This document shows, in pieces, positions 1 through 9,928 of a stretch of 9,928 nucleotides of DNA. The notes beneath the pieces were generated by a model. It was not told the DNA's origin. It was given only the letters and a program-made list of their open reading frames with translations, and searched no databases. Each line of letters begins with the position of its first letter. Within the stretch, counting starts at the first letter, position 1. The stretch covers positions 1 to 9,928 of IMG/VR virus record IMGVR_UViG_2698536618_000006; one strand, written 5' to 3'. Position numbers and translations under genes: made by a program. Source of the stretch: a virus. Taxonomy: Duplodnaviria > Heunggongvirae > Uroviricota > Caudoviricetes.

Positions 1-56
1 ACGGACTGCCCGTTGACGGACTTCAGGGGAAAAACGAGTATTTTTAGTCATCCTGT

Positions 57-689
57 TTACCTCTTTCTCAGGAAGTTTAGTCTCCAGGATTCCCGGGGCG
101 GTTCAATAAGGCGTTTTGCTTCCTCCTTTTCCAGCCATCTGACTCGCTTGTTTCTGACCGCTGGTATCTTGATGACAGGCGCTTTTTCCAGCCACTTCCA
201 GTCGCGTTCTGCAGCACGGAGAATGGCCTTTATCATGGCAAGATGCTTTGCCTTTGTCTGAGTTGATACTGGCTTTGGTTCATAAACAGGCAGTTCTTTA
301 CCTTTCCTGATGGCGGCCTGAACTTTCTGTTTCCATATTTCTTTCGTCTTTCTGTTATGCATTCTGCTTACAGCAGAGTAAATCTTTGCCTCCGAGATAT
401 CTTTAAGCCTTATACCCTCAAAATGTTCAAGCCAGAACTCAATCCGGCTTTTATCTGAATCGAGAGATTTTTTATCAGCTTTTTCCTCAAGCCATCTTAG
501 GCAGGCCTCTTCAAAAGTGACATCAGGTAAATCCCCTAGCTTTTCTACTCGCCAGAGTTCTGCTTTTCGCTTGTCGTGCAACTCCTGAGCTTGCCGCTTG
601 TCCTTTGTGCCAAGAGATTCCTTAATTCGTTTCCCGCCCGGGAGCGAATACGAGGCATACCATATTTCATTTCTGCGGAAGAGTGACAT
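57..689 (-). CDS. int: Tyrosine integrase, N-terminal 210 aa only; the ORF hits a stop at 57-59 before any catalytic domain, so it is probably frameshifted or truncated
   Basis: ATG at 689-687, TAA at 59-57. Sits directly downstream of and overlapping an excisionase-like gene, as in lambdoid int-xis modules. The 210 aa lack the R-K-H-R-H-Y catalytic region expected in a 350-410 aa integrase. A different minus-strand frame stays open from about 102 to the window edge. Confidence 0.55.
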
Positions 690-916
690 TTTCTTTCCTC
701 TGTTATGCCATCACCCGCGCTCACCTGGACAGTATGCAGCGGAGACTGAAGCGCCGCAATGCAGGCTTGCCGTGTTGTGAGGTAAGGAGATTTTGGCTTG
801 GTTGGATCTTTACGTGTTGCCTGTAGGCGGCCTGTTCGTATCCAGTTGGTGGCGGTTGGTCTGGATATCTTAAGAAACTGACAGGCCTCATCGAGTGTGA
901 GGCTGTATGATTCCAT
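545..916 (-). CDS. xis: Excisionase / AlpA-like HTH DNA-binding protein
   Basis: Start chosen at the internal ATG 916-914 ([33 protein letters not shown]...), preceded by AGAGG. The N-terminal ~70 aa resemble AlpA/Xis winged-helix proteins. The ORF runs 123 aa and overlaps int by about 145 nt, which is long for an excisionase. Confidence 0.6.
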
Positions 917-1166
917 GGTTACCTCTGCTTTTTGAACGCATGTCACGTAACTTCTTAATGTGTTCTGCCGTTTCGATCTCTTCTGCTATCCGATCTGCAT
1001 CAGCTTTATTCACAGGTTCAAAGTCATGATTAAAGCGGAACATGCTGGCGATACATGTTCTGCCTTTTCGGATGTAGTGAACTTTGTTGTGGGTAGAACG
1101 CAGGATTTTGCAGGGAGTGCCGTGGTGGTCGACGTACCAGGTGTTAGGAAAAATGATTCTGAACAT
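888..1166 (-). CDS. Hypothetical phage protein (92 aa)
   Basis: ATG at 1166-1164 with GAGGTG Shine-Dalgarno 7 nt upstream. Same orientation as the flanking early-left genes. No family recognised. Confidence 0.45.
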   Translation of the reverse strand: MFRIIFPNTWYVDHHGTPCKILRSTHNKVHYIRKGRTCIASMFRFNHDFEPVNKADADRIAEEIETAEHIKKLRDMRSKSRGNHGIIQPHTR

Positions 1167-1213
1167 TTTTACACCTCAGTTGGACGATGTTGAAATTTGC
1201 TGCTTTGAGGCCA

Positions 1214-1432
1214 TCACAGTCCCCATTGTTTGTTCTTAAGTTCGATCTCCTCCTGGCAACTTGCACAAGTCCGACAACCCTGAACAGCCAGGCGTCTTCG
1301 CTCATCTATCGGATCGCCACACTCACAACAATGAGTTGCGGATACAGTCTGGTAGTTCTGACGACGCATTTTTATTGCTGTATTGCGCTGTAATTCTTCG
1401 ATTTCTGATGCTGAATCAATGATGTCTGCCAT
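1214..1432 (-). CDS. TraR/DksA-family C4 zinc-finger protein (72 aa)
   Basis: ATG at 1432-1430. C-x2-C ... C-x2-C motif (CCECGDPIDERRRLAVQGCRTCASC) typical of phage TraR/DksA-like proteins. Confidence 0.7.
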   Translation of the reverse strand: MADIIDSASEIEELQRNTAIKMRRQNYQTVSATHCCECGDPIDERRRLAVQGCRTCASCQEEIELKNKQWGL

Positions 1433-1484
1433 CTTCCATTAATCCCTGAATTGTTGGTTAATACGCTTGAGGATGAATGCGAAC

Positions 1485-1508
1485 AATAAAAAAGGAGCCT
1501 GTAGCTCC
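1485..1508 (-). terminator. Candidate intrinsic terminator on the minus strand
   Basis: Hairpin GGAGC-ctgta-GCTCC (1494-1508) followed on the minus strand by a TTTTTTATT run (plus-strand A-run 1485-1493). Confidence 0.35.
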
Positions 1509-1530
1509 CTGATGATTTTGCTTTTCATGT

Positions 1531-1812
1531 TCACCGTTCCTTAAAGACGCCGTTTAACATGCCGATCGCCAGGCTTAAATGAGTCGGTGTGAATCCCATC
1601 AGCGTTACCGTTTCGCGGTGCTTCTTCAGTACGCTACGGCAAATGTCATCGACGTTTTTATCCGGAAACTGCTGTCTGGCTTTTTTGATTTCAGAATTAG
1701 CCTGACGGGCAATGCTGCGAAGGGCGTTTTCCTGCTGAGGTGTCATTGAACAAGTCCCATATCGGCAAGCATAAGCACACAGAATATGAAGCCCGCTGCC
1801 AGAAAAATGCAT
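1531..1812 (-). CDS. Hypothetical phage protein; start uncertain (ATG at 1812 or 1746)
   Basis: The track ORF starts at a TTG (1845). The first ATG is at 1812-1810, 11 nt after the methyltransferase stop; another ATG lies at 1746. Neither has a strong Shine-Dalgarno. No family recognised. Confidence 0.45.
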   Translation of the reverse strand: MHFSGSGLHILCAYACRYGTCSMTPQQENALRSIARQANSEIKKARQQFPDKNVDDICRSVLKKHRETVTLMGFTPTHLSLAIGMLNGVFKER

Positions 1813-1822
1813 TCCGTGGTTG

Positions 1823-2380
1823 TCATGCAGCCTCCCGACGGGCAAGAATCCTTGAGCCGAACGCCATCAACTCTCCACGATCAACGGTCGTAAAGTGGCA
1901 GTGTGTACGGGGGTATGGGTGCCAGATAATGAGCATCGAGCCTTTATTATTTCCACTGACGGGTTTCTCAGTGAGTGGGTTAATAAATGCCAGTCGTCCT
2001 GCCGTGATGAATCTGACCTCACTGGCGGTTTGTATCGCTTCATGAAACCATCCGACAGATGTGTCAGCAGGCAATAACATTACACATCCCACACTACTGA
2101 ATTTGTTTTCAGTGGCTGCCTTTTTCACAAAAGGGGAAATATTGCTGTATGGTGGATTCAACCAGACATAACCAGAGGCATATCCCATTGCTTCAGGCCA
2201 TGAAGTGGTTAATGTGTTCTGCTCCTGTGAGATAAAAAGCCGACATAGTCGGTTTTTTTCGCTGGCGGCAGCATCAAGTTGAAAAACGAACTCTGCATTA
2301 AGCGCAGCAAAAATCTCTGGTGGTGTGCGCCAGCTGTCGCGATGTTCGGCAGGAGTATTGCTTCCGGTGAAATCAGTCAT
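1823..2380 (-). CDS. Phage Dam-type DNA N6-adenine methyltransferase (orphan, 185 aa)
   Basis: ATG at 2380-2378 with a GGGGG Shine-Dalgarno-like run upstream. Contains the NPPY catalytic motif (VWLNPPYSN) of N6-adenine/N4-cytosine methyltransferases. Size and context fit the small phage Dam family. No restriction endonuclease gene is adjacent. Confidence 0.75.
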   Translation of the reverse strand: MTDFTGSNTPAEHRDSWRTPPEIFAALNAEFVFQLDAAASEKNRLCRLFISQEQNTLTTSWPEAMGYASGYVWLNPPYSNISPFVKKAATENKFSSVGCVMLLPADTSVGWFHEAIQTASEVRFITAGRLAFINPLTEKPVSGNNKGSMLIIWHPYPRTHCHFTTVDRGELMAFGSRILARREAA

Positions 2381-2534
2381 ACAGCCCCCGTTTATTATTT
2401 ATCGCCTCAGCCAGCCGCTGTGCTTTCAGTGGATTTCTGATAACAGAAAGGCCGGGAAATACCCAGCCTCGCTTTGTAACGGAGTAGATGAAAGTGATCG
2501 CGCCTACCCGGATATTATCGTGAGGATGCTTCAT
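2373..2534 (-). CDS. Small ORF (53 aa), translationally coupled to exo; resembles lambda orf60a by position and sequence
   Basis: Its ATG (2534-2532) overlaps the exo stop as ATGA, and its stop overlaps the methyltransferase start. Translation [53 protein letters not shown]. Below the ORF-track size cutoff. Confidence 0.4.
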
Positions 2535-3211
2535 CGCCATTGCTCCCCAAATACAAAACCAATTTCAGCCAGTGCCACGTCCATTTTTTCGATGAACTCC
2601 GGCACCATCTCGTCAAAATTCGCCATGTACTTTTCATTCCGCTCAATCACGACATAATGCAGGCCTTCACGCTTCATACGCGGGTCATAGTTGGCAAAGT
2701 ACCAGGCATCTTTTCGCGTCACCCACATGCTGTACTGCACCTGGGCCATGTAAGCCGATTTTATGGCCTCGAAACCACCGAGCCGGAACTTCATGAAATC
2801 CCGGGAGGTAAACGGGCATTTCAGTTCAAGGCCGTTGCCGTCACTGCATAAACCATCGGGAGAGCAGGCGGTGCGCATACTTTCGTCGCGATAGATGATC
2901 GGGGATTCAGTAACATTCACGCCGGAAGTGAATTCAAACAGGGTTCTGGCGTCGTTCTCGTACTGTTTTCCCCAGGCCAGCGCCTTAGCATTAACTTCCG
3001 GAGCCACACCGGTGCAAACCTCAGCCAGCAGGGTGTGGAAGTAGGACATTTTCATGTCAGGCCACTTTTTTCCTGAGCGGGGCTTTGCTATCACGTTGTG
3101 AACTTCTGAAGCGGTGATGACGCCGAGCCGTAATTTGTGCCATGCATCATCCCCCTGTTCGACAGCTCTCACGTCGATCCCGGTACGCTGCAGGATAATG
3201 TCCGGTGTCAT
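2531..3211 (-). CDS. exo: Lambda-type exonuclease (Red-alpha), 226 aa
   Basis: Full-length [43 protein letters not shown]... matches lambda Exo nearly residue for residue from memory. Its ATG overlaps the bet stop (ATGA). Confidence 0.95.
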
Positions 3212-3993
3212 GCTGCCACCTTCTGCTCAGTGGCTTTCTGTTTCAGGAATCCAAGAGCTTTCACTGCTTCGGCCTGTGTCAGTTCTGACGATGCGCGAAT
3301 GTCGCGGCGAAATATCTGGGAACAGAGCGGCAATAAGTCGTCATCCCATGTTTTATCCAGGGCGATCAGCAGAGTGTTAATCTCCTGCATGGTTTCATCG
3401 TTAACCGGAGTGATGTCGCGTTCTGGCTGACGTTCTGCAGTGTATGCAGTATTTTCGACAATGCGCTCGGCTTCATCCTTGTCATAGATACCAGCAAATC
3501 CGAAGGCCAGACGGGCACACTGAATCATGGCTTTATGCCGTAACATCCGTTTGGGATGCGACTGCCACGGCCCCGTGATTTCTCTGCCTTCGCGAGTTTT
3601 GAATGGTTCGCGGCGGCATTCATCCATCCATTCGGTAACGCAGATCGGATGATTACGGTCCTTGCGGTAAATCCGGCATGTACAGGATTCATTGTCCTGC
3701 TCAAAGTCCATGCCATCAAACTGCTGGTTTTCATTGATGATGCGGGACCAGCCATCAACGCCCACCACCGGAACGATGCCGTTCTGCTTATCAGGGAAGG
3801 CGTAAATTTCTTTCGTCCACGGATTAAGGCCGTACTGGTTGGCAACGATCAGTAATGCGATGAACTGCGCATCGCTGGCATCACCTTTAAATGCCGTCTG
3901 GCGAAGAGTGGTGATCAGTTCCTGTGGGTCGACAGAATCCATGCCGACACGTTCAGCCAGCTTCCCAGCCAGCGTTGCGAGTGCTGTACTCAT
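3208..3993 (-). CDS. bet: Bet (Red-beta) single-strand annealing protein, 261 aa
   Basis: [66 protein letters not shown]... recognisable as lambda Bet. Sits between gam and exo in the lambda order. Confidence 0.95.
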
Positions 3994-3998
3994 CCGTT

Positions 3999-4415
3999 TT
4001 ATACCTCTGAATCAATATCAACCTGATGGTGAGCAATGGTTTCAACCATGTACCGGATGTGTTCTGCCATGCGCTCCTGAAACTCAACATCGTCATCAAA
4101 CGCACGGGTAATGGCTTTTTTGCTGGCCCCGTGGCGTTGCAAATGATCGATGCATAGCGATTCAAACAGGTGCTGGGGCAGGCCTTTTTCCATGTCGTCT
4201 GCCAGTTCTGCCTCTTTCTCTTCACGGGCGATCTGCTGGTAGTGACGCGCCCAGCTCTGAGCCTCAAGACGATCCTGAATGTAATAAGCGTTCATGGCTG
4301 AACTCCTGAAATAGCTGTGAAAATATCGCCCGCGAAATGCCAGGCTGATTAGGAAAACAGGAAAGGGGGTTAGTGAATGCTTTTGCTTGATCTCAGTTTC
4401 AGCATTAATATCCAT
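3999..4415 (-). CDS. gam: Gam, RecBCD inhibitor, 138 aa
   Basis: [61 protein letters not shown]... matches lambda Gam. The internal Met at MNAYYIQ corresponds to the short Gam form. Confidence 0.95.
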
Positions 4416-4513
4416 TTTTTATAAGCGTCGACGGCTTCACGAAACATCTTTTCATCGCCAATAAAAGTGGCGATAGTGAATTTAGTCTGGATAGCCATAA
4501 GTGTTTGATCCAT
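4370..4513 (-). CDS. kil: Kil, host-killing / cell-division inhibitor, 47 aa
   Basis: Internal ATG at 4513-4511 of track ORF 4370-4639 gives [47 protein letters not shown], matching lambda Kil. Overlaps the gam 5' end and the cIII 3' end as in lambda. Confidence 0.85.
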
Positions 4514-4646
4514 TCTTTGGGACTCCTGGCTGATTAAGTATGTCGATAAGGCGTTTCCATCCGTCACGTAATTTACGGGTGATTCGTTCAAGTAAAGATT
4601 CGGAAGGGCAGCCAGCAACAGGCCACCCTGCAATGGCATATTGCAT
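4482..4646 (-). CDS. cIII: CIII, FtsH (HflB) protease inhibitor, 54 aa
   Basis: Internal ATG at 4646-4644 preceded by AAGGAG. Translation [54 protein letters not shown] matches lambda CIII. Confidence 0.9.
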   Translation of the reverse strand: MQYAIAGWPVAGCPSESLLERITRKLRDGWKRLIDILNQPGVPKNGSNTYGYPD

Positions 4647-4718
4647 GGTGTGCTCCTTATTTATACATAACGAAAAACGCCTCGAGTGAAGCGTTATTGG
4701 TATGCGGTAAAACCGCAC

Positions 4719-5087
4719 TCAGGCGGCCTTGATAGTCATATCATCTGAATCAAATATTCCTGATGTATCGATATCGGTAATTCTTATTCCTTCACTACCA
4801 TCCATTGGAGGCCATCCTTCCTGACCATTTCCATCATCCCAGTCGAACTCACAAACAACACCATATGCATTTAAGTCTTTCGAAATTGCTATAAGCAGAG
4901 CATGTTGCGCCAGCATGATTAATACAGCATTTAATAAAGAGCCGTGTTTATTTAGTTGGTATTCAGAGTCTGACCAGAAATTATTAATCTGGTGAAGTTT
5001 TTCCTCTGTCATTACGTCATGGTCGATTTCAATTTCTATTGATGCTTTCCAGTCGTAATCAATGATGTATTTTTTGATGTTTGACAT
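4719..5087 (-). CDS. ea10: Ea10-like protein (lambda Ea10/Ssb-type), 122 aa
   Basis: MSNIKKYIIDYDWKASIEIEIDHDVMTEEKLHQINNFWSDSEYQ... matches lambda Ea10 from memory, in the same position between cIII and ral. Confidence 0.85.
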   Translation of the reverse strand: MSNIKKYIIDYDWKASIEIEIDHDVMTEEKLHQINNFWSDSEYQLNKHGSLLNAVLIMLAQHALLIAISKDLNAYGVVCEFDWDDGNGQEGWPPMDGSEGIRITDIDTSGIFDSDDMTIKAA

Positions 5088-5105
5088 CTGTTCATATCCT
5101 CACAG

Positions 5106-5133
5106 ATAAAAAATCGCCCTCACACTGGAGGGC
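5106..5133 (-). terminator. Intrinsic terminator on the minus strand (tL3-like position between ral and ea10)
   Basis: Stem GCCCTC (5116-5121) / GAGGGC (5128-5133) with a 6-nt loop, followed on the minus strand by TTTTTTAT (plus-strand A-run 5108-5113). Confidence 0.55.
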
Positions 5134-5290
5134 AAAGAAGATTTCCAATAATCAGAACAAGTCGGCTCCTGTTTAGTTACGAGCGACATTGCTCCGTGTA
5201 TTCACTCGTTGGAATGAATACACAGTGCAGTGTTTATTCTGTTATTTATGCCAAAAATAAAGGCCACTATCAGGCAGCTTTGTTGTTCTG

Positions 5291-5470
5291 TTAACCAAGT
5301 TCTCTGGCAATCATTGCCGTCGTTCGTATTGCCCATTTATCGACATATTTCCCATCTTCCATTACAGGAAACATTTCTTCAGGCTTAACCATGCATTCCG
5401 ATTGCAGCTTGCATCCATTGCATCGCTTGAATTGTCCACACCATTGATTTTTATCAATAGTCGTAGTCAT
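5291..5470 (-). CDS. ral: Ral (restriction-alleviation protein), C-terminally truncated by a premature TAA: 59 aa where the lambda-type frame predicts 66
   Basis: ATG at 5470-5468. Translation MTTTIDKNQWCGQFKRCNGCKLQSECMVKPEEMFPVMEDGKYVDKWAIRTTAMIARELG then TAA (5293-5291). The same frame continues QNNKAA to a TGA at 5272-5270, which would give the 201-nt lambda-type gene. Confidence 0.8.
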   Translation of the reverse strand: MTTTIDKNQWCGQFKRCNGCKLQSECMVKPEEMFPVMEDGKYVDKWAIRTTAMIARELG

Positions 5471-5540
5471 ACGGATAGTCCTGGTATTGTTCCATCACAT
5501 CCTGAGGATGCTCTTCGAACTCTTCAAATTCTTCTTCCAT
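5454..5540 (-). CDS. Small acidic ORF (28 aa), lambda orf28-like
   Basis: ATG at 5540-5538 with AAGGTGA Shine-Dalgarno. Translation MEEEFEEFEEHPQDVMEQYQDYPYDYDY. Its 3' end overlaps the ral start. Confidence 0.5.
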   Translation of the reverse strand: MEEEFEEFEEHPQDVMEQYQDYPYDYDY

Positions 5541-5683
5541 ATATCACCTTAAATAGTGGATTGCGGTAGTAAAGATTGTGCCTGTCTTTTAACCACATCA
5601 GGCTCGGTGGTTCTCGTGTACCCCTACAGCGAGAAATCGGATAAACTCTATTCACCCCTACAGAGAGCAAAAGAGAAACGCCG

Positions 5684-6265
5684 ATGAACAACTCATGGTG
5701 GCAGGAACTAATGCATTTTTTCCTGCAAGGAATGACACTTAAACAGTTGATTCATATGCTAATCATCCTGATCATATTGATTATTGTTATGCCGGTAAGC
5801 GTAAAAGAATGGATAAACCTGCATAATCCAGAAATCCTTCCTCATTATTGGATGTATTACATCCTGTTGTTCTGCGTTAGCTATGTGCTTAACGGTGTTG
5901 TTAATTCCGCTTATCACGCTGTGACTGAAAGAATTGAGGTATCCGCTGCTCAGAAGCGCAAATCTAAAGAAGAAAAATATGTGCAAGATTTGTTTGATTC
6001 GTTAACTCTTGGAGAAAGAGCGTATTTGGCATTCGCTGTAGCCGCGAATAACCAGCTAAAGACAGAAAAGGGAAGCCCTGAAGCAATCTCATTGCTCGAA
6101 AAAGGGCTTCTTATTCGGATACCTTCTGCTACTGGATATCCTGAAATCGACCGTTTTGTTATCCCGGAACGCTATAGAAATGAGTGCTACATTAGGTTTG
6201 CTGGGAAGAAAGACAGTCTTATGGATGAACTTATCGCTCAGGATAAGCATGGCAAAAACAAGTAA
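5684..6265 (+). CDS. sieB: Superinfection exclusion protein B (SieB), membrane protein, 193 aa
   Basis: ATG at 5684. Hydrophobic N-terminal segment (LIHMLIILIILIIVMPV) and a sequence recognisable as lambda/P22 SieB. Plus-strand gene between ral and N, as in lambda. Confidence 0.85.
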   Translation: MNNSWWQELMHFFLQGMTLKQLIHMLIILIILIIVMPVSVKEWINLHNPEILPHYWMYYILLFCVSYVLNGVVNSAYHAVTERIEVSAAQKRKSKEEKYVQDLFDSLTLGERAYLAFAVAANNQLKTEKGSPEAISLLEKGLLIRIPSATGYPEIDRFVIPERYRNECYIRFAGKKDSLMDELIAQDKHGKNK

Positions 6266-6280
6266 TTAGCAAATGATTTA

Positions 6281-6553
6281 TCATCTCGCCGTCAGTTGTT
6301 TTGATTTCCTGTAGCCTGCCGCGTAAATGGCTACGTTTGGCAGGCAAACACTTCCACTGCATTCATCAACTTTCTTGCAGCGAAGACTTCCGAGTGATGC
6401 TGCTTTGTCTGCTCTGACGCAACCAGAGAGCTTTAGCGCAATTTTTCGCGCCAGTCGCTGCTCTTGCATCGCCTGTTCACGTTGAGCCTGTCTGCGTGCT
6501 CTGCGGCGATTTCTGGCGTTATCGTCAGCCAGATATGTAATGACTACTGTCAT
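6281..6553 (-). CDS. N: N-type transcription antitermination protein, 90 aa
   Basis: Internal ATG at 6553-6551 preceded by GGAGG (the track ORF begins at a GTG further upstream). Arginine-rich N-terminal motif DDNARNRRRARRQAQREQ and a C-terminus CLPNVAIYAAGYRKSKQLTAR like the N proteins of 933W and P22. First gene downstream of pL/nutL. Confidence 0.8.
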   Translation of the reverse strand: MTVVITYLADDNARNRRRARRQAQREQAMQEQRLARKIALKLSGCVRADKAASLGSLRCKKVDECSGSVCLPNVAIYAAGYRKSKQLTAR

Positions 6554-6863
6554 GTTGACCTCCGATGAAACAACTTTGGAATTGATAGTGATTGCAAAGT
6601 GGTTTCTGGCCCCTCGAATTGAGGGGCAGAAAGAGCATCTCGCCACCTAATAGGTCGATGCTCGGATCGAGAGATTTAATTAACCTCGGTTTTGAAGTTA
6701 TGCATTCACATAAATCCTCCTGTTGCATGTGCAGCATTGGCTGTGTTTGGCGGCTGCATTTCGCCTATGGAATTGACTTTGGCGGTGACGCGCCGGGTGC
6801 TTATCTTCCGGTTGCCGTCGTGCAGCTGCACTTCACGTCACCCCAAAGCCAACTACTCTTTGG

Positions 6864-6905
6864 TTCCCGCATTTCGGCGGGACAATCCCATCAATGTTAA
6901 AGAGC
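6864..6905 (-). promoter_or_regulatory. nutL: nutL: boxA GCTCTTTAACA plus boxB hairpin
   Basis: On the minus strand, GGCTCTTTAACA (plus 6895-6905), a 12-nt spacer, then UCCCGCCGAAAUGCGGGAA (plus 6864-6882). The same boxA core and an identical 19-nt boxB recur on the plus strand between cro and cII (8534-8578). Confidence 0.7.
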
Positions 6906-6951
6906 CTGCCAATCTGTTCCGTTTGGCTACCAGCGTCCTGCTGATGGTTAA

Positions 6952-6980
6952 AGAATACTGTAGGTATTTTATTTTGTAAA
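6952..6980 (-). promoter_or_regulatory. pL: pL early-left promoter: -35 TTTACA, 17-bp spacer, -10 TATTCT
   Basis: On the minus strand the -35 is at plus 6975-6980 and the -10 at plus 6952-6957. The -10 lies inside the OL1 operator and the -35 abuts OL2. The same -10 hexamer is used by the candidate pR. Confidence 0.6.
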
Positions 6981-7037
6981 TACTCAAGGTATTTATTTTG
7001 GTGAAATAATGATAAGCAAATGAATACAAAGGATATT
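6954..7037. promoter_or_regulatory. OL: OL operator array: three 15-bp sites with consensus AATAC-N5-GTATT
   Basis: AATACTGTAGGTATT (6954-6968), AATACTCAAGGTATT (6979-6993) and AATACAAAGGATATT (7023-7037, one mismatch). The first two are 25 bp apart, the same spacing as the OR sites. Confidence 0.6.
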
Positions 7038-7123
7038 TATTTTTTCGGCGTCTGCTTGTTCAGTGCTTTTTATGCGGGATATGTGAAGTGGATCCCGATA
7101 GCTATTGCTGCCGGGATTATGGG

Positions 7124-7492
7124 TTAGTCAGCGAAGGTTAAGACGAGAATTACCTTAATGATGTCTGCTACAACAGACACGGCCATAGATAAACCAAAGA
7201 CGATCCAAGCCATAGAGATGTCTTCACTACCATCGTATAGAGTTCCGTAATCACTGGTATAAGGCGTAAATGTCGCGCCTTGATACAATAGGTATAAGCT
7301 TGATCCATAGAGGATAAATGCAGATATCCCTTGTATTGCTATGATCACCAGAATCATGAAACGAGCTGATCTATGCGCCCAAGCCTGGCTTATTTTTTCT
7401 GATAGAGATTTCGCAAGAAAAGCATGCGCTAAGCCGTAAATTGTCGAGATTGCCAACATCCCAAAAAAGCTTGCTATAGCGGTTCCAACCAT
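7124..7492 (-). CDS. Small integral membrane protein (122 aa, three predicted TM helices), co-transcribed downstream of cI; function unknown
   Basis: ATG at 7492-7490 with AAGGGG Shine-Dalgarno 5 nt upstream; the track's 7513 start is a TTG. It begins 17 nt after the cI stop on the same strand. Three hydrophobic stretches: residues ~2-27, ~45-70, ~94-120. It occupies the position that rexA/rexB hold in lambda. Confidence 0.65.
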   Translation of the reverse strand: MVGTAIASFFGMLAISTIYGLAHAFLAKSLSEKISQAWAHRSARFMILVIIAIQGISAFILYGSSLYLLYQGATFTPYTSDYGTLYDGSEDISMAWIVFGLSMAVSVVADIIKVILVLTFAD

Positions 7493-7509
7493 AAGCGCCC
7501 CTTGCGTGA

Positions 7510-8226
7510 TCAAACCAGCCTTAGTTTTGTCTCAATTGCAACGCCTATAATCTTGCAGTTTCCATTGATTGGCACGAGAGGCCATGCAGGATTAAGTCCC
7601 TTGAGGTATTTATTTCCGCCGTCGATTATCAGCTTCTTGAATGTTGCTTCGTTAGAGTCAGAAAGTTTTGCTATGACCAAGCTGCCGTTGACCGCCTCCC
7701 TTCCGGTATCGAAAAGAACGAATGTTCCCTCTGGAATGCTTAACCCAACCGGTGCCGTCATTGAATCACCTTCCACTTTAAGCCAGAACGCATTACCTTG
7801 AATATGCGCGTCAGACTCAAGCCAAACATCTATGTCTTTAATGGTGTATGGTTCGCATGCTTCACACCACGAGCCAGCCTGGATACTGCTTAACACCGGA
7901 TACCTCTTTCCTGCTCTGTATTCCCCTGCATACCTTACGTTGGCATCGCTCTTAAGGCTTTCTGCCTGTTCTGCAACCTTGGCAGCAATTGACTGGCTAA
8001 AATCAGCAATTGAGACTTGCAACAACCGTGCAAAACCAGATGCAACCTCAACGTTTAGCGCGTTTCTGCCATTAAGATAATGCCCTACCGCTCCTTGGGT
8101 GATACCCAGTTCATCAGCGATTGAGTATTGGGTTATTCCCAATTCTTTCTTTTTTGACTCATACAAAGCCTTAAGCCGCTTAGCGTCTTCGAGCTGTTCT
8201 GTCGTCAGTGATTTTTTATTTTCCAT
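7510..8226 (-). CDS. cI: CI-type prophage repressor (HTH N-terminal domain, LexA-like S24 autopeptidase C-terminal domain), 238 aa
   Basis: ATG at 8226-8224. The N-terminal region resembles lambda CI (LTTEQLEDAKRLKALYESKKKELGITQ). The C-terminal domain resembles 434 CI / P22 C2, with an Ala-Gly cleavage site (IQAGSW), the catalytic Ser in GDSM and Lys in FKKL. Divergent from cro with operators in between. Confidence 0.9.
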   Translation of the reverse strand: MENKKSLTTEQLEDAKRLKALYESKKKELGITQYSIADELGITQGAVGHYLNGRNALNVEVASGFARLLQVSIADFSQSIAAKVAEQAESLKSDANVRYAGEYRAGKRYPVLSSIQAGSWCEACEPYTIKDIDVWLESDAHIQGNAFWLKVEGDSMTAPVGLSIPEGTFVLFDTGREAVNGSLVIAKLSDSNEATFKKLIIDGGNKYLKGLNPAWPLVPINGNCKIIGVAIETKLRLV

Positions 8227-8237
8227 AGCTTAATTCT

Positions 8238-8303
8238 AATAGCTAAGGTACTTAAACTAAAAATACCCTGAGTATTGATTGATTTGAATACCTGTAGTAT
8301 TCT
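8238..8303. promoter_or_regulatory. OR: OR operator region with pR (-35 TTGATT 8275-8280, -10 TATTCT 8298-8303) and a candidate leaderless pRM
   Basis: OR1 AATACCTGTAGTATT (8287-8301) and OR2 AATACCCTGAGTATT (8262-8276) are 25 bp apart; a degenerate third site AATAGCTAAGGTACT lies at 8238-8252. The pR -10 sits inside OR1. On the minus strand a TAGAAT hexamer (plus 8233-8238) lies 6 nt upstream of the cI ATG, suggesting a leaderless cI mRNA as in lambda. Confidence 0.6.
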
Positions 8304-8332
8304 TTGTTCATGGTTAATAACGGAGAGTGCAT

Positions 8333-8527
8333 ATGATTCGAATGACACTTGCCGATTACGCCAAAATCCATGGACAGGCTAAAGCAGCCAGTGACTTTGG
8401 TGTAATCCAGTGCGCTATCAGCAAGGCCATTCTGGCAGGCCGTAACATCATGGTTACGGTAAAGCCTGATGGCAGTGTGATTGGAGAGGAAGTTCGTCCT
8501 TTCCCAAGCAACAAGAAAAACAAATAG
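8333..8527 (+). CDS. cro: Cro repressor, 64 aa
   Basis: ATG at 8333 with GGAGA Shine-Dalgarno 6 nt upstream (the track start at 8327 is a GTG). [64 protein letters not shown] resembles lambda Cro. First gene downstream of pR. Confidence 0.85.
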
Positions 8528-8533
8528 TAACAC

Positions 8534-8578
8534 CGCTCTTTAACAGTCATGGTCATCACTCCCGCCGAAATGCGGGAA
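8534..8578 (+). promoter_or_regulatory. nutR: nutR: boxA CGCTCTTTAACA plus boxB hairpin
   Basis: boxA at 8534-8545, a 14-nt spacer, then UCCCGCCGAAAUGCGGGAA at 8560-8578, identical to the nutL boxB. A GCGCA...TGCGC hairpin with a T-rich tail at 8585-8618 may mark a tR1-like region. Confidence 0.7.
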
Positions 8579-8635
8579 TACAACGCGCATAATTTGATGC
8601 GCATAACTTCTTATTTGTTAAGGAAATACTTACAT

Positions 8636-8914
8636 ATGCAACTTACAAGTACTCGCAAGAAAGCGAATGCAATTACAAGCAACATCCTGAATCGAATTGC
8701 TGTACGTGGTCAGCGAAAGGTTGCCGACGCGTTAGGGATTAATGAATCGCAAATTTCGCGATGGAAAGACAGCTTTATCCCAAAGATGGCCATGCTTCTG
8801 GCTGTGCTGGAGTGGGGTGTTGAAGACGAGGAATTAGCAAAGCTAGCAAAGAAAGTAGCCATGGTGCTGACAAAAGAAAAGCCTCAAGACTGCTGCAACA
8901 GTTTTGAGGCCTGA
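8636..8914 (+). CDS. cII: CII transcriptional activator, 92 aa
   Basis: Start re-set to ATG 8636 (AAGGAAA upstream); the track ORF start at 8549 lies inside nutR. HTH region ...GINESQISRWKDSFIPKMAMLLAVLEWGV resembles lambda CII (...QISRWKRDWIPKFSMLLAVLEWGV). Confidence 0.85.
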   Translation: MQLTSTRKKANAITSNILNRIAVRGQRKVADALGINESQISRWKDSFIPKMAMLLAVLEWGVEDEELAKLAKKVAMVLTKEKPQDCCNSFEA

Positions 8915-8939
8915 TGTAGAAAGACTGGATCAATCCACA
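8872..8939 (-). ncRNA. oop: oop-like antisense RNA, candidate (terminator hairpin in the cII 3' end; promoter pO in the O 5' end)
   Basis: Minus-strand hairpin GCCTCAA...TTGAGGC (plus 8881-8910) followed by TTTTCTTTT (plus A-run 8872-8880). Candidate minus-strand promoter -35 TTGAGT / -10 CATAAT at plus 8946-8974. This matches the lambda oop arrangement. The 5' end is estimated. Confidence 0.45.
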
Positions 8940-8948
8940 GGAGTCATT

Positions 8949-9848
8949 ATGACAAATACAGCAAAAATACTCAACTTCTGCAGAGGTAACTTTGCCAAAC
9001 AGGAGCGTAATGTGGCAGATCTCGATGATGGTTACGCCAGACTATCAAATATGCTGCTTGAGGCTTATTCAGGCGCAGATCTGACCAAGCGACAGTTTAA
9101 AGTGCTGCTTGCCATTCTGCGTAAAACCTATGGGTGGAATAAACCAATGGACAGAATCACCGATTCTCAACTTAGCGAGATTACAAAGTTACCCGTCAAA
9201 CGGTGCAATGAAGCCAAGTTAGAACTCGTCAGAATGAATATTATCAAGCAGCAAGGCGGCATGTTTGGACCAAATAAAAACATCTCAGAATGGTGTATCC
9301 CTCAAAACGAGGGAAAATCCCCTAAAACGAGGGATAAAACATCCCTCAAATTGGGGGATTGCTATCCCTCAAAACAGGGGGACACAAAAGACACTAATAC
9401 AAAAGAAAAAAGAAAAGATTATTCGTCAGAGAATTCTGGCGAATCCTCTGACCAGCCAGAAAACGATCTTTCTGTGGTTAAACCGGATGCTGCAATTCAG
9501 AGCGGCAGCAAGTGGGGAACAGCAGAAGACCTGACCGCCGCAGAGTGGATGTTTGACATGGTGAAGACTATCGCACCATCAGCCAGAAAACCGAATTTTG
9601 CTGGGTGGGCTAACGATATCCGCCTGATGCGTGAACGTGACGGACGTAACCATCGCGACATGTGTGTACTGTTCCGCTGGGCATGCCAGGACAACTTCTG
9701 GTCCGGTAACGTTCTTAGCCCGGCCAAACTCCGCGACAAGTGGACCCAGCTCGAAATCAACCGTAACAAGCAACAGGCAGTCGTGACAGCCAGCAAACCA
9801 AAACTCGACCTGACAAACACAGACTGGATTTACGGGGTGGATCTATGA
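8949..9848 (+). CDS. O: Replication initiator O, 299 aa
   Basis: Start re-set to ATG 8949 (AGGAG upstream). MTNTAKILNFCRGNFAKQERNVADLDDGYARLSNMLLEAYSG... closely matches lambda O along its whole length from memory. It contains the iteron origin internally, and its stop overlaps the P start. Confidence 0.95.
   Translation: MTNTAKILNFCRGNFAKQERNVADLDDGYARLSNMLLEAYSGADLTKRQFKVLLAILRKTYGWNKPMDRITDSQLSEITKLPVKRCNEAKLELVRMNIIKQQGGMFGPNKNISEWCIPQNEGKSPKTRDKTSLKLGDCYPSKQGDTKDTNTKEKRKDYSSENSGESSDQPENDLSVVKPDAAIQSGSKWGTAEDLTAAEWMFDMVKTIAPSARKPNFAGWANDIRLMRERDGRNHRDMCVLFRWACQDNFWSGNVLSPAKLRDKWTQLEINRNKQQAVVTASKPKLDLTNTDWIYGVDL
9296..9420. repeat. ori: Lambda-type replication origin: four iterons (about 9296-9381) plus an A/T-rich region (9382-9420) inside O
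   Basis: Four tandem ~19-24 bp repeats, each an inverted repeat of the form TCCCTCAAAACGAGGGA (ATCCCTCAAAACGAGGGA, AAATCCCCTAAAACGAGGGA, ACATCCCTCAAATTGGGGGA, ATCCCTCAAAACAGGGGGA), followed by ACAAAAGACACTAATACAAAAGAAAAAAGAAAAGATTATT. Confidence 0.8.
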
Positions 9849-9928
9849 AAAACATCGCCGCACAGATGGTTAACTTTGACCGTGAGCAGATGCGTCGGAT
9901 CGCCAACAACATGCCGGAACAGTACGAC
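9845..9928 (+). CDS. P: Replication protein P (helicase loader), 5' end only; continues past the window
   Basis: ATG at 9845 overlapping the O stop (ATGA). MKNIAAQMVNFDREQMRRIANNMPEQYD matches the lambda P N-terminus. Confidence 0.9.
   Translation, partial: MKNIAAQMVNFDREQMRRIANNMPEQYD

Follow-up and report, generated by a model that had tools for sequence, protein, structure and literature searches.

An IS629/IS1203-group insertion very probably splits the integrase gene of a lambdoid prophage beside an intact P22-type xis

The stretch of DNA analyzed here (the window) is 9,928 nt long and is the entire contig CYGF01000063.1 of the Escherichia coli assembly GCA_001285485.1. The integrase gene (int) of a lambdoid prophage at its left end has, with high confidence, been split by an insertion sequence (IS) of the IS629/IS1203 group, while the neighboring excisionase gene (xis) is intact. 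According to the proposed mechanism, a 1,310-bp IS would have inserted itself at codon 195/196 of int in a prophage whose type appears, from related genomes, to sit at the argU tRNA-Arg site. The int frame would then continue for 15 codons within the inverted repeat of the IS before reaching a stop, giving a product with the N-terminal half of Int and without the catalytic core, which would be incapable of recombination. The 3' half of int would persist on the far side of the IS. The initial annotation, made from the window alone, had described the same region as a decayed int-xis module, with an integrase frame ended early by a frameshift or by local sequencing errors and an unusually long xis.

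The junction between int and the insertion sequence

The features at the left end of the window are as follows.

Positions 1-105, minus strand: left end of an IS3-family element of the IS629/IS1203 group, comprising the inverted repeat (from 105), the leader and the start of orfA.
Positions 1-51, minus strand: first 17 codons of the transposase gene orfA (MTKNTRFSPEVRQRAVR), which runs off the contig end.
Positions 57-689, minus strand: chimeric int'-IS open reading frame (ORF) of 210 aa, with ATG at 689-687 and TAA at 59-57.
Positions 103-105, minus strand: junction bases TGA, common to the IS terminus and to intact int by coincidence.
Positions 106-689, minus strand: 5' half of intD (DLP12/P22 type), encoding the N-terminal half of the protein, residues 1-195 of 387.

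To the right of the junction the window is ordinary prophage sequence. Positions 103 to 4500 match an intact locus (L001), in which intD encodes 387 aa and adjoins tRNA-Arg and fimZ, at 99.8% identity over 4,398 nt with zero gaps; this gap-free match means that neither int nor xis contains an indel. When 5,426 complete E. coli genomes were searched by megablast with window 1-1500, 770 of them covered at least 80% of the query, and the best matches are 100% identical, each starting exactly at base 103. Alignment with intact loci detected no similarity to int or intD to the left of that base. When the window, an IS copy and intact intD were aligned together, the break fell at the first base of the IS inverted repeat, the exact breakpoint being ambiguous within the 3 nt from 103 to 105.

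The sequence on the other side of the break is the end of a common transposable element. The terminal inverted repeat, which at window 105 begins TGAACCGCCCCGGGAATCCTGGAG..., opens a segment (105 to 1) for which more than 1,800 E. coli records contain an IS3-family element identical at 105 of 105 nt, and across thousands of E. coli replicons an IS3-family element with the matching end bears the annotation "IS3 family transposase". A complete copy at another locus (L008, positions 1601-2910) is 1,310 bp long and aligns base for base with the window end. This copy has imperfect terminal inverted repeats starting TGAACCGCCCCGGG, and it encodes an OrfA of 108 aa that starts MTKNTRFSPEVRQRAVR and carries an HTH_Tnp_1 domain, together with an OrfB of 296 aa that carries HTH_21 and rve domains. 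A programmed frameshift is included in the PGAP annotation of IS copies with the identical end. The terminal inverted repeat specific to the group (5'-TG, TGAACCGCCCCGG) was recognized by comparing window 105 to 64 with the left repeat of complete copies. The right end of the element reads ...CCCGGGGCGGTTCA, and the IS in the window has the same orientation as int.

The naming of the element is deliberately broad. IS629, IS1203 and IS3411 are isoforms, and the sub-types of IS629 are 4-5% apart (PMC3271280), so the element is assigned here to the IS629/IS1203 group only. The Stx2a phage PA4 carries an IS629 copy of 1,310 bp at nt 24,350-25,659 (PMC4587872). Over the 105 nt that could be compared, the window is identical to the PA4 copy at 98 positions (93%). 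With 7 of the 105 terminal bases differing from this O157 sub-type, the window copy probably represents another sub-type.

These alignments bear directly on the frameshift near positions 60-100 that had been suggested first, in which the catalytic domain would continue leftward in another minus-strand frame. There is indeed another open frame on the minus strand, which starts just after the TGA at 105-103 and extends from 102 to the edge of the window. Its translation, however, gives the IS leader and the N-terminus of OrfA (MTKNTRFSPEVRQRAVR) and does not resemble a continuation of IntD; the DNA to the left of 103 has no intD resemblance and is 100% identical to the IS end, whereas everything from 103 rightwards aligns without gaps to intact intD. 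A frameshift or a sequencing error in this interval is thus left with almost no probability.

The same junction is found on a 3,738-bp contig of GCA_017117465.1, which likewise ends inside the IS. The features listed above belong to the deposited sequence and are no product of chance. A break inside a multi-copy IS is what one expects of short-read assemblers, and the contig studied here ends 105 nt into the element because it was not assembled any further through the repeat. That circumstance could also favor an assembly chimera, in which the real int is intact and reads from an IS were misjoined to int reads at the contig end: the junction lies about 100 nt from the end of a draft short-read contig, and it occurs in none of the 5,426 complete E. 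coli genomes. We nevertheless regard a chimera as highly improbable. The 210-aa ORF is present on contigs of both GCA_001285485.1 and GCA_017117465.1 (recorded in 2 and 3 samples), and the break lies at the very base where the terminal inverted repeat of the IS begins, as expected of transposition and not of a random misjoin. Two assemblies with a junction exactly at a transposon terminus thus argue against the chimera, as do independent insertions of the same IS group in this prophage region of finished genomes.

The searches for the junction itself gave the following results. Megablast with a junction-spanning query recovered the exact junction in none of the 5,426 complete E. coli genomes; matches with at least 80% coverage occurred at two places, one of which (H31) is an insertion at another site and the other (H32) a weak match of 87.6%. 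A 39-nt junction string had no match in species-representative genomes. Two hits of the first search (H1 and H2) had seemed to span the whole query and were set aside, the IS of H1 being located elsewhere, in the DUF4222 gene.

The transposition that we favor makes a prediction for the side of the element that lies beyond the contig. The target-site duplication is predicted to be TAT, and the right junction would consist of the IS right end, TAT and TGATGAGTGCCCC..., continuing to tRNA-Arg; the int sequence after TAT is expected to read TGATGAGTGCCCCGAACCACTG..., again on to tRNA-Arg (argU). A search for the predicted right junction (the IS right end, 0-6 nt, then TGATGAGTGCCCCGAACC) had no match in species-representative genomes. 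Since the window holds the left IS junction only, the insertion could have been followed by an IS-mediated deletion or inversion that displaced or removed the 3' half of int, possibly together with the attachment site and its flanks, and elsewhere in E. coli the DLP12-type prophages at argU frequently show extensive rearrangement by IS elements (K-12; 1916D18). We consider this sequel unlikely, though with a larger share of the probability than the artifacts discussed above. No positive sign of a deletion was seen, positions 103 to 9928 have the appearance of a lambdoid early region free of damage, in which the genes from xis to O are all complete, and the sole comparable finished case, that of 1916D18, is a simple insertion with a 3-bp duplication.

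The interrupted integrase and its product

The minus-strand int ORF had been reported as 210 aa long with a stop at 57-59, and this reading was confirmed. The ORF consists of Int residues 1-195 followed by 15 unrelated residues encoded by the IS. Residues 1-195 are identical at 195 of 195 positions to those of the intact, 387-aa IntD (WP_001299447). The 15-residue tail also terminates an unrelated ORF that enters another IS copy (L008, 1230-1649).

In a Pfam scan, PF00589 covers residues 184-355 of intact IntD with 160 bits, and the truncated 210-aa ORF gave no match to this profile. The initial statement that int stops before any catalytic domain is correct as far as the catalytic residues go, none of which is kept, and slightly too strong for the domain as a whole, of which about 12 residues, beginning at 184, remain in the truncated product. 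The catalytic residues of IntD (R215, H314, R317 and Y349) and the conserved W340, assigned by the standard motifs of tyrosine recombinases, are all located past residue 195. The N-terminal homology to tyrosine recombinases of the IntD/P22 Int type is therefore present and the R-H-R-Y catalytic domain absent. Judged by its sequence, the window int is a gene fragment and not a working member of the tyrosine recombinase family. With all catalytic residues beyond the break, this copy of int is dead and would catalyze no recombination.

The loss of this copy means that the prophage is probably unable to excise unless Int is supplied in trans; excision could be restored by another prophage of the host whose Int has the same specificity. 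The earlier conclusion that the prophage can no longer excise is thus reasonable, int being dead before its catalytic residues, but the cause is the IS and not a frameshift.

We also noticed some features of the chimeric frame in its own right. Its TAA (59-57) is located 5 nt upstream of the ATG of orfA (51-49; window 49-62, minus strand), and the stop overlaps the GAGG Shine-Dalgarno sequence of the IS orfA. Given this proximity, ribosomes that translate int' could be passed on to the start codon of the transposase. In another IS copy (L008, 1230-1649) the inverted repeat is likewise open in this frame.

The excisionase gene

Two further genes are located to the right of the int fragment.

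Positions 545-916, minus strand: P22-type xis of 123 aa, with ATG at 916-914, TAG at 547-545 and a 145-nt overlap with int.
Positions 888-1166, minus strand: DUF4222 gene (PF13973, 69.4 bits), directly upstream of xis with a 29-nt overlap.

The length of the xis ORF and its overlap with int agree with the initial description. The coordinate 946 that had been given as the limit of the module belongs to a mechanical, GTG-extended ORF of 133 aa. The true start codon is the ATG at 916: a GAGG ribosome-binding site lies 7 nt before it, and it agrees with the N-terminus of P22 Xis. The Pfam domain HTH_17 (PF12728) was detected at residues 6-36 with 35.5 bits against a cut-off of 27, and it was the only Pfam match at E ≤ 0.01; the profiles for the lambda excisionase and Phage_AlpA did not match Xis. 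A search of PDB sequences with Xis gave a best E-value of 0.068, to an unrelated protein.

Xis had been judged unusually long against a yardstick of about 70 aa for AlpA/Xis proteins. That yardstick comes from a different family, that of lambda Xis and AlpA. For the P22-type excisionases a length of 115-126 aa and an int overlap of 124-145 nt are the norm, as the following homologs illustrate.

P22: Xis of 116 aa (length taken from the NC_002371 annotation), 124-nt int overlap, 76-78% identical to the window Xis.
SfI: Xis of 116 aa, 124-nt int overlap, 78-81% identical.
mEp213: Xis of 115 aa, 124-nt int overlap, 41% identical.
APSE-1: Xis of 126 aa, 145-nt int overlap, 45% identical.

In tblastn searches, residues 1-122 of the window Xis aligned to P22 at 76% identity, and residues 1-123 to APSE and mEp213 at 41-47%. 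Full-length homology, length, and position upstream of int with an overlap all place the protein in the P22-type excisionase family, and the extra C-terminal heptapeptide of the window Xis is present in APSE-1. The Xis of P22 itself was reportedly purified and characterized by Mattis, Gumport and Gardner in 2008, a study to which PMC7498355 refers.

The proposed decay of xis is at odds with its conservation. Fifteen phage records encode the protein at 99.2-100% identity. At the DNA level, 99.8-100% identity to window 103-1200 was seen in nine phage entries submitted as complete genomes, namely PhiR26_1, PhiR30_1, Turner, 2G7b (two records), ev243 (two records), PhiR68_2 and PhiR34_1. Several of the nine give laboratory propagation hosts. 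A literature search found no paper describing the PhiR phages, whose viability is read from the type of GenBank record and the host fields. In a simulation with synonymous recoding, the xis frame stayed open for at least 116 codons in 29% of the random recodings, which makes the openness of the frame weak evidence; the case for an intact gene is instead built on homology to annotated excisionases and on identity to phage genomes. From these comparisons xis is a normal and intact P22-type excisionase gene and not a decayed one, and the presence of an identical gene in free phages gives indirect support to a role of its product in stimulating Int-mediated excision.

The annotation of this gene in public records deserves a separate comment. 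RefSeq/PGAP reduces xis to a 66-nt HTH pseudogene labeled "incomplete, missing C-terminus" (window 851-916, minus strand). The same call was seen at the equivalent positions of L001, L002 and L014, and in every E. coli genome that we inspected, while the PhiR26_1 and Turner phage records carry no annotation of the 123-aa ORF. This seemingly systematic artifact is probably caused by the long overlap with int.

Genomic context

The order DUF4222-xis-int is also that of intact prophages and phages. The rest of the contig is a mosaic lambdoid early region in which every gene was called at full length, and the early genes comprise DUF4222, TraR/DksA, dam, exo, bet, gam, kil, cIII, ral, sieB, N, cI, cro, cII and O. 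A promoter and terminator scan of positions 1-1300 gave nothing above the shuffled expectation.

Two observations concern the region farther to the right. The Rfam family Lambda_thermo, the lambda cIII thermoregulator, was found at the 5' end of cIII (4601-4659, minus strand) with 88.5 bits against a gathering score of 50. The right end of the contig (9849-9928) is located about 80 nt past O, the replication gene, at a point where one would expect to find a P-like gene, and this end is probably an assembly break in sequence common to co-resident lambdoid prophages.

Comparison with known prophages and insertions

Among the closest known relatives is DLP12 of K-12 (intD b0537, xisD b4633, argU), to which window 103-784 is 99.85% identical and with which it shares the IntD-type integrase; genomes related to the window type share the site by tRNA-Arg(UCU) and fimZ. 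The two prophages differ in which gene of the module is damaged. K-12 has a full-length intD and, in xisD, a pseudogene without its 5' HTH part, whereas in the window xis is complete and int is interrupted by the IS. The window prophage also keeps the full lambdoid early region, unlike DLP12 of K-12.

K-12 xisD (L013, NC_000913.3, 1859-2080) can be recognized as a 5'-deleted remnant of the same xis: the homology ends at window 784, and an exoD fragment follows directly after that point in K-12. The window thus displays the undeleted, ancestral int-xis arrangement of DLP12.

Another is the int-xis module of P22, found also in SfI/SfV, ST64T, mEp213 and APSE-1, which pairs an Int of 387 aa with a long Xis that has an N-terminal HTH and overlaps int. 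The window Xis has 7 more C-terminal residues than those of P22 and SfI, in the form seen in APSE-1. The attachment site of the window's relatives is of the argU type, in contrast to thrW for P22, and int is disrupted in the window.

As to the element, IS629/IS1203/IS3411 copies are found in E. coli prophages, for example in Stx2a phages of O157:H7, as elements of 1,310 bp with TGAACCGCCCCGG... termini, orfA and orfB joined by a frameshift, and target duplications of 3-4 bp. Insertions of the IS629 type are known from the literature as a leading cause of disrupted prophage genes and of broken contigs (PMC4587872; PMC3271280). The window differs from the known cases in its site in intD, which is occupied in none of the 5,426 finished E. 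coli genomes, and in the 7 of 105 terminal bases that distinguish it from the O157 sub-type.

A further comparison is with strain 1916D18 (NZ_CP046000.1), whose intD at argU is split by an element of the same group (IS1203-type) in the same orientation. The insertion in 1916D18 is at about nt 984 of int, against nt 585 in the window, and belongs to another IS sub-type; both halves of int and a 3-bp duplication, GGC, are visible. By analogy, 1916D18 probably shows the likely complete structure of the insertion in the window.

Beyond this comparison, the small int-xis region of the argU prophage type has been hit repeatedly by elements of the IS629/IS1203 group. The insertion in intD of NZ_CP046000.1 (L014, 1309-2522) is located about 400 bp from the window site, and an independent insertion is found in the DUF4222 gene beside xis in NZ_CP074879.1 (L002, 3931-5144).

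Discussion

The event described here is a known kind of prophage inactivation and contains essentially nothing new. We think it very doubtful that the IS-truncated int represents more than decay, be it through a functional 210-aa product or through in-place replication with packaging. In the first variant, the 210-aa product, putatively expressed, may act as a dominant-negative factor or as one that binds the attachment site; if so, the prophage would be anchored, or the integration and excision of related phages would be blocked. In the second, the excision-defective prophage may replicate in situ upon induction and package fim/argU DNA, as in lateral transduction.

The value of the finding is mostly for annotation, in that what looks like a "frameshifted integrase" where a contig ends is an IS junction. 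The int of this window should be labeled as an IS-disrupted intD and not as a sequencing error, and the automated call of a 66-nt pseudogene on a genuine P22-type xis invites the same misreading. For the prophage family, the insertion very likely adds another case in which IS629-group elements immobilize lambdoid prophages of E. coli, which is already a well-documented process.
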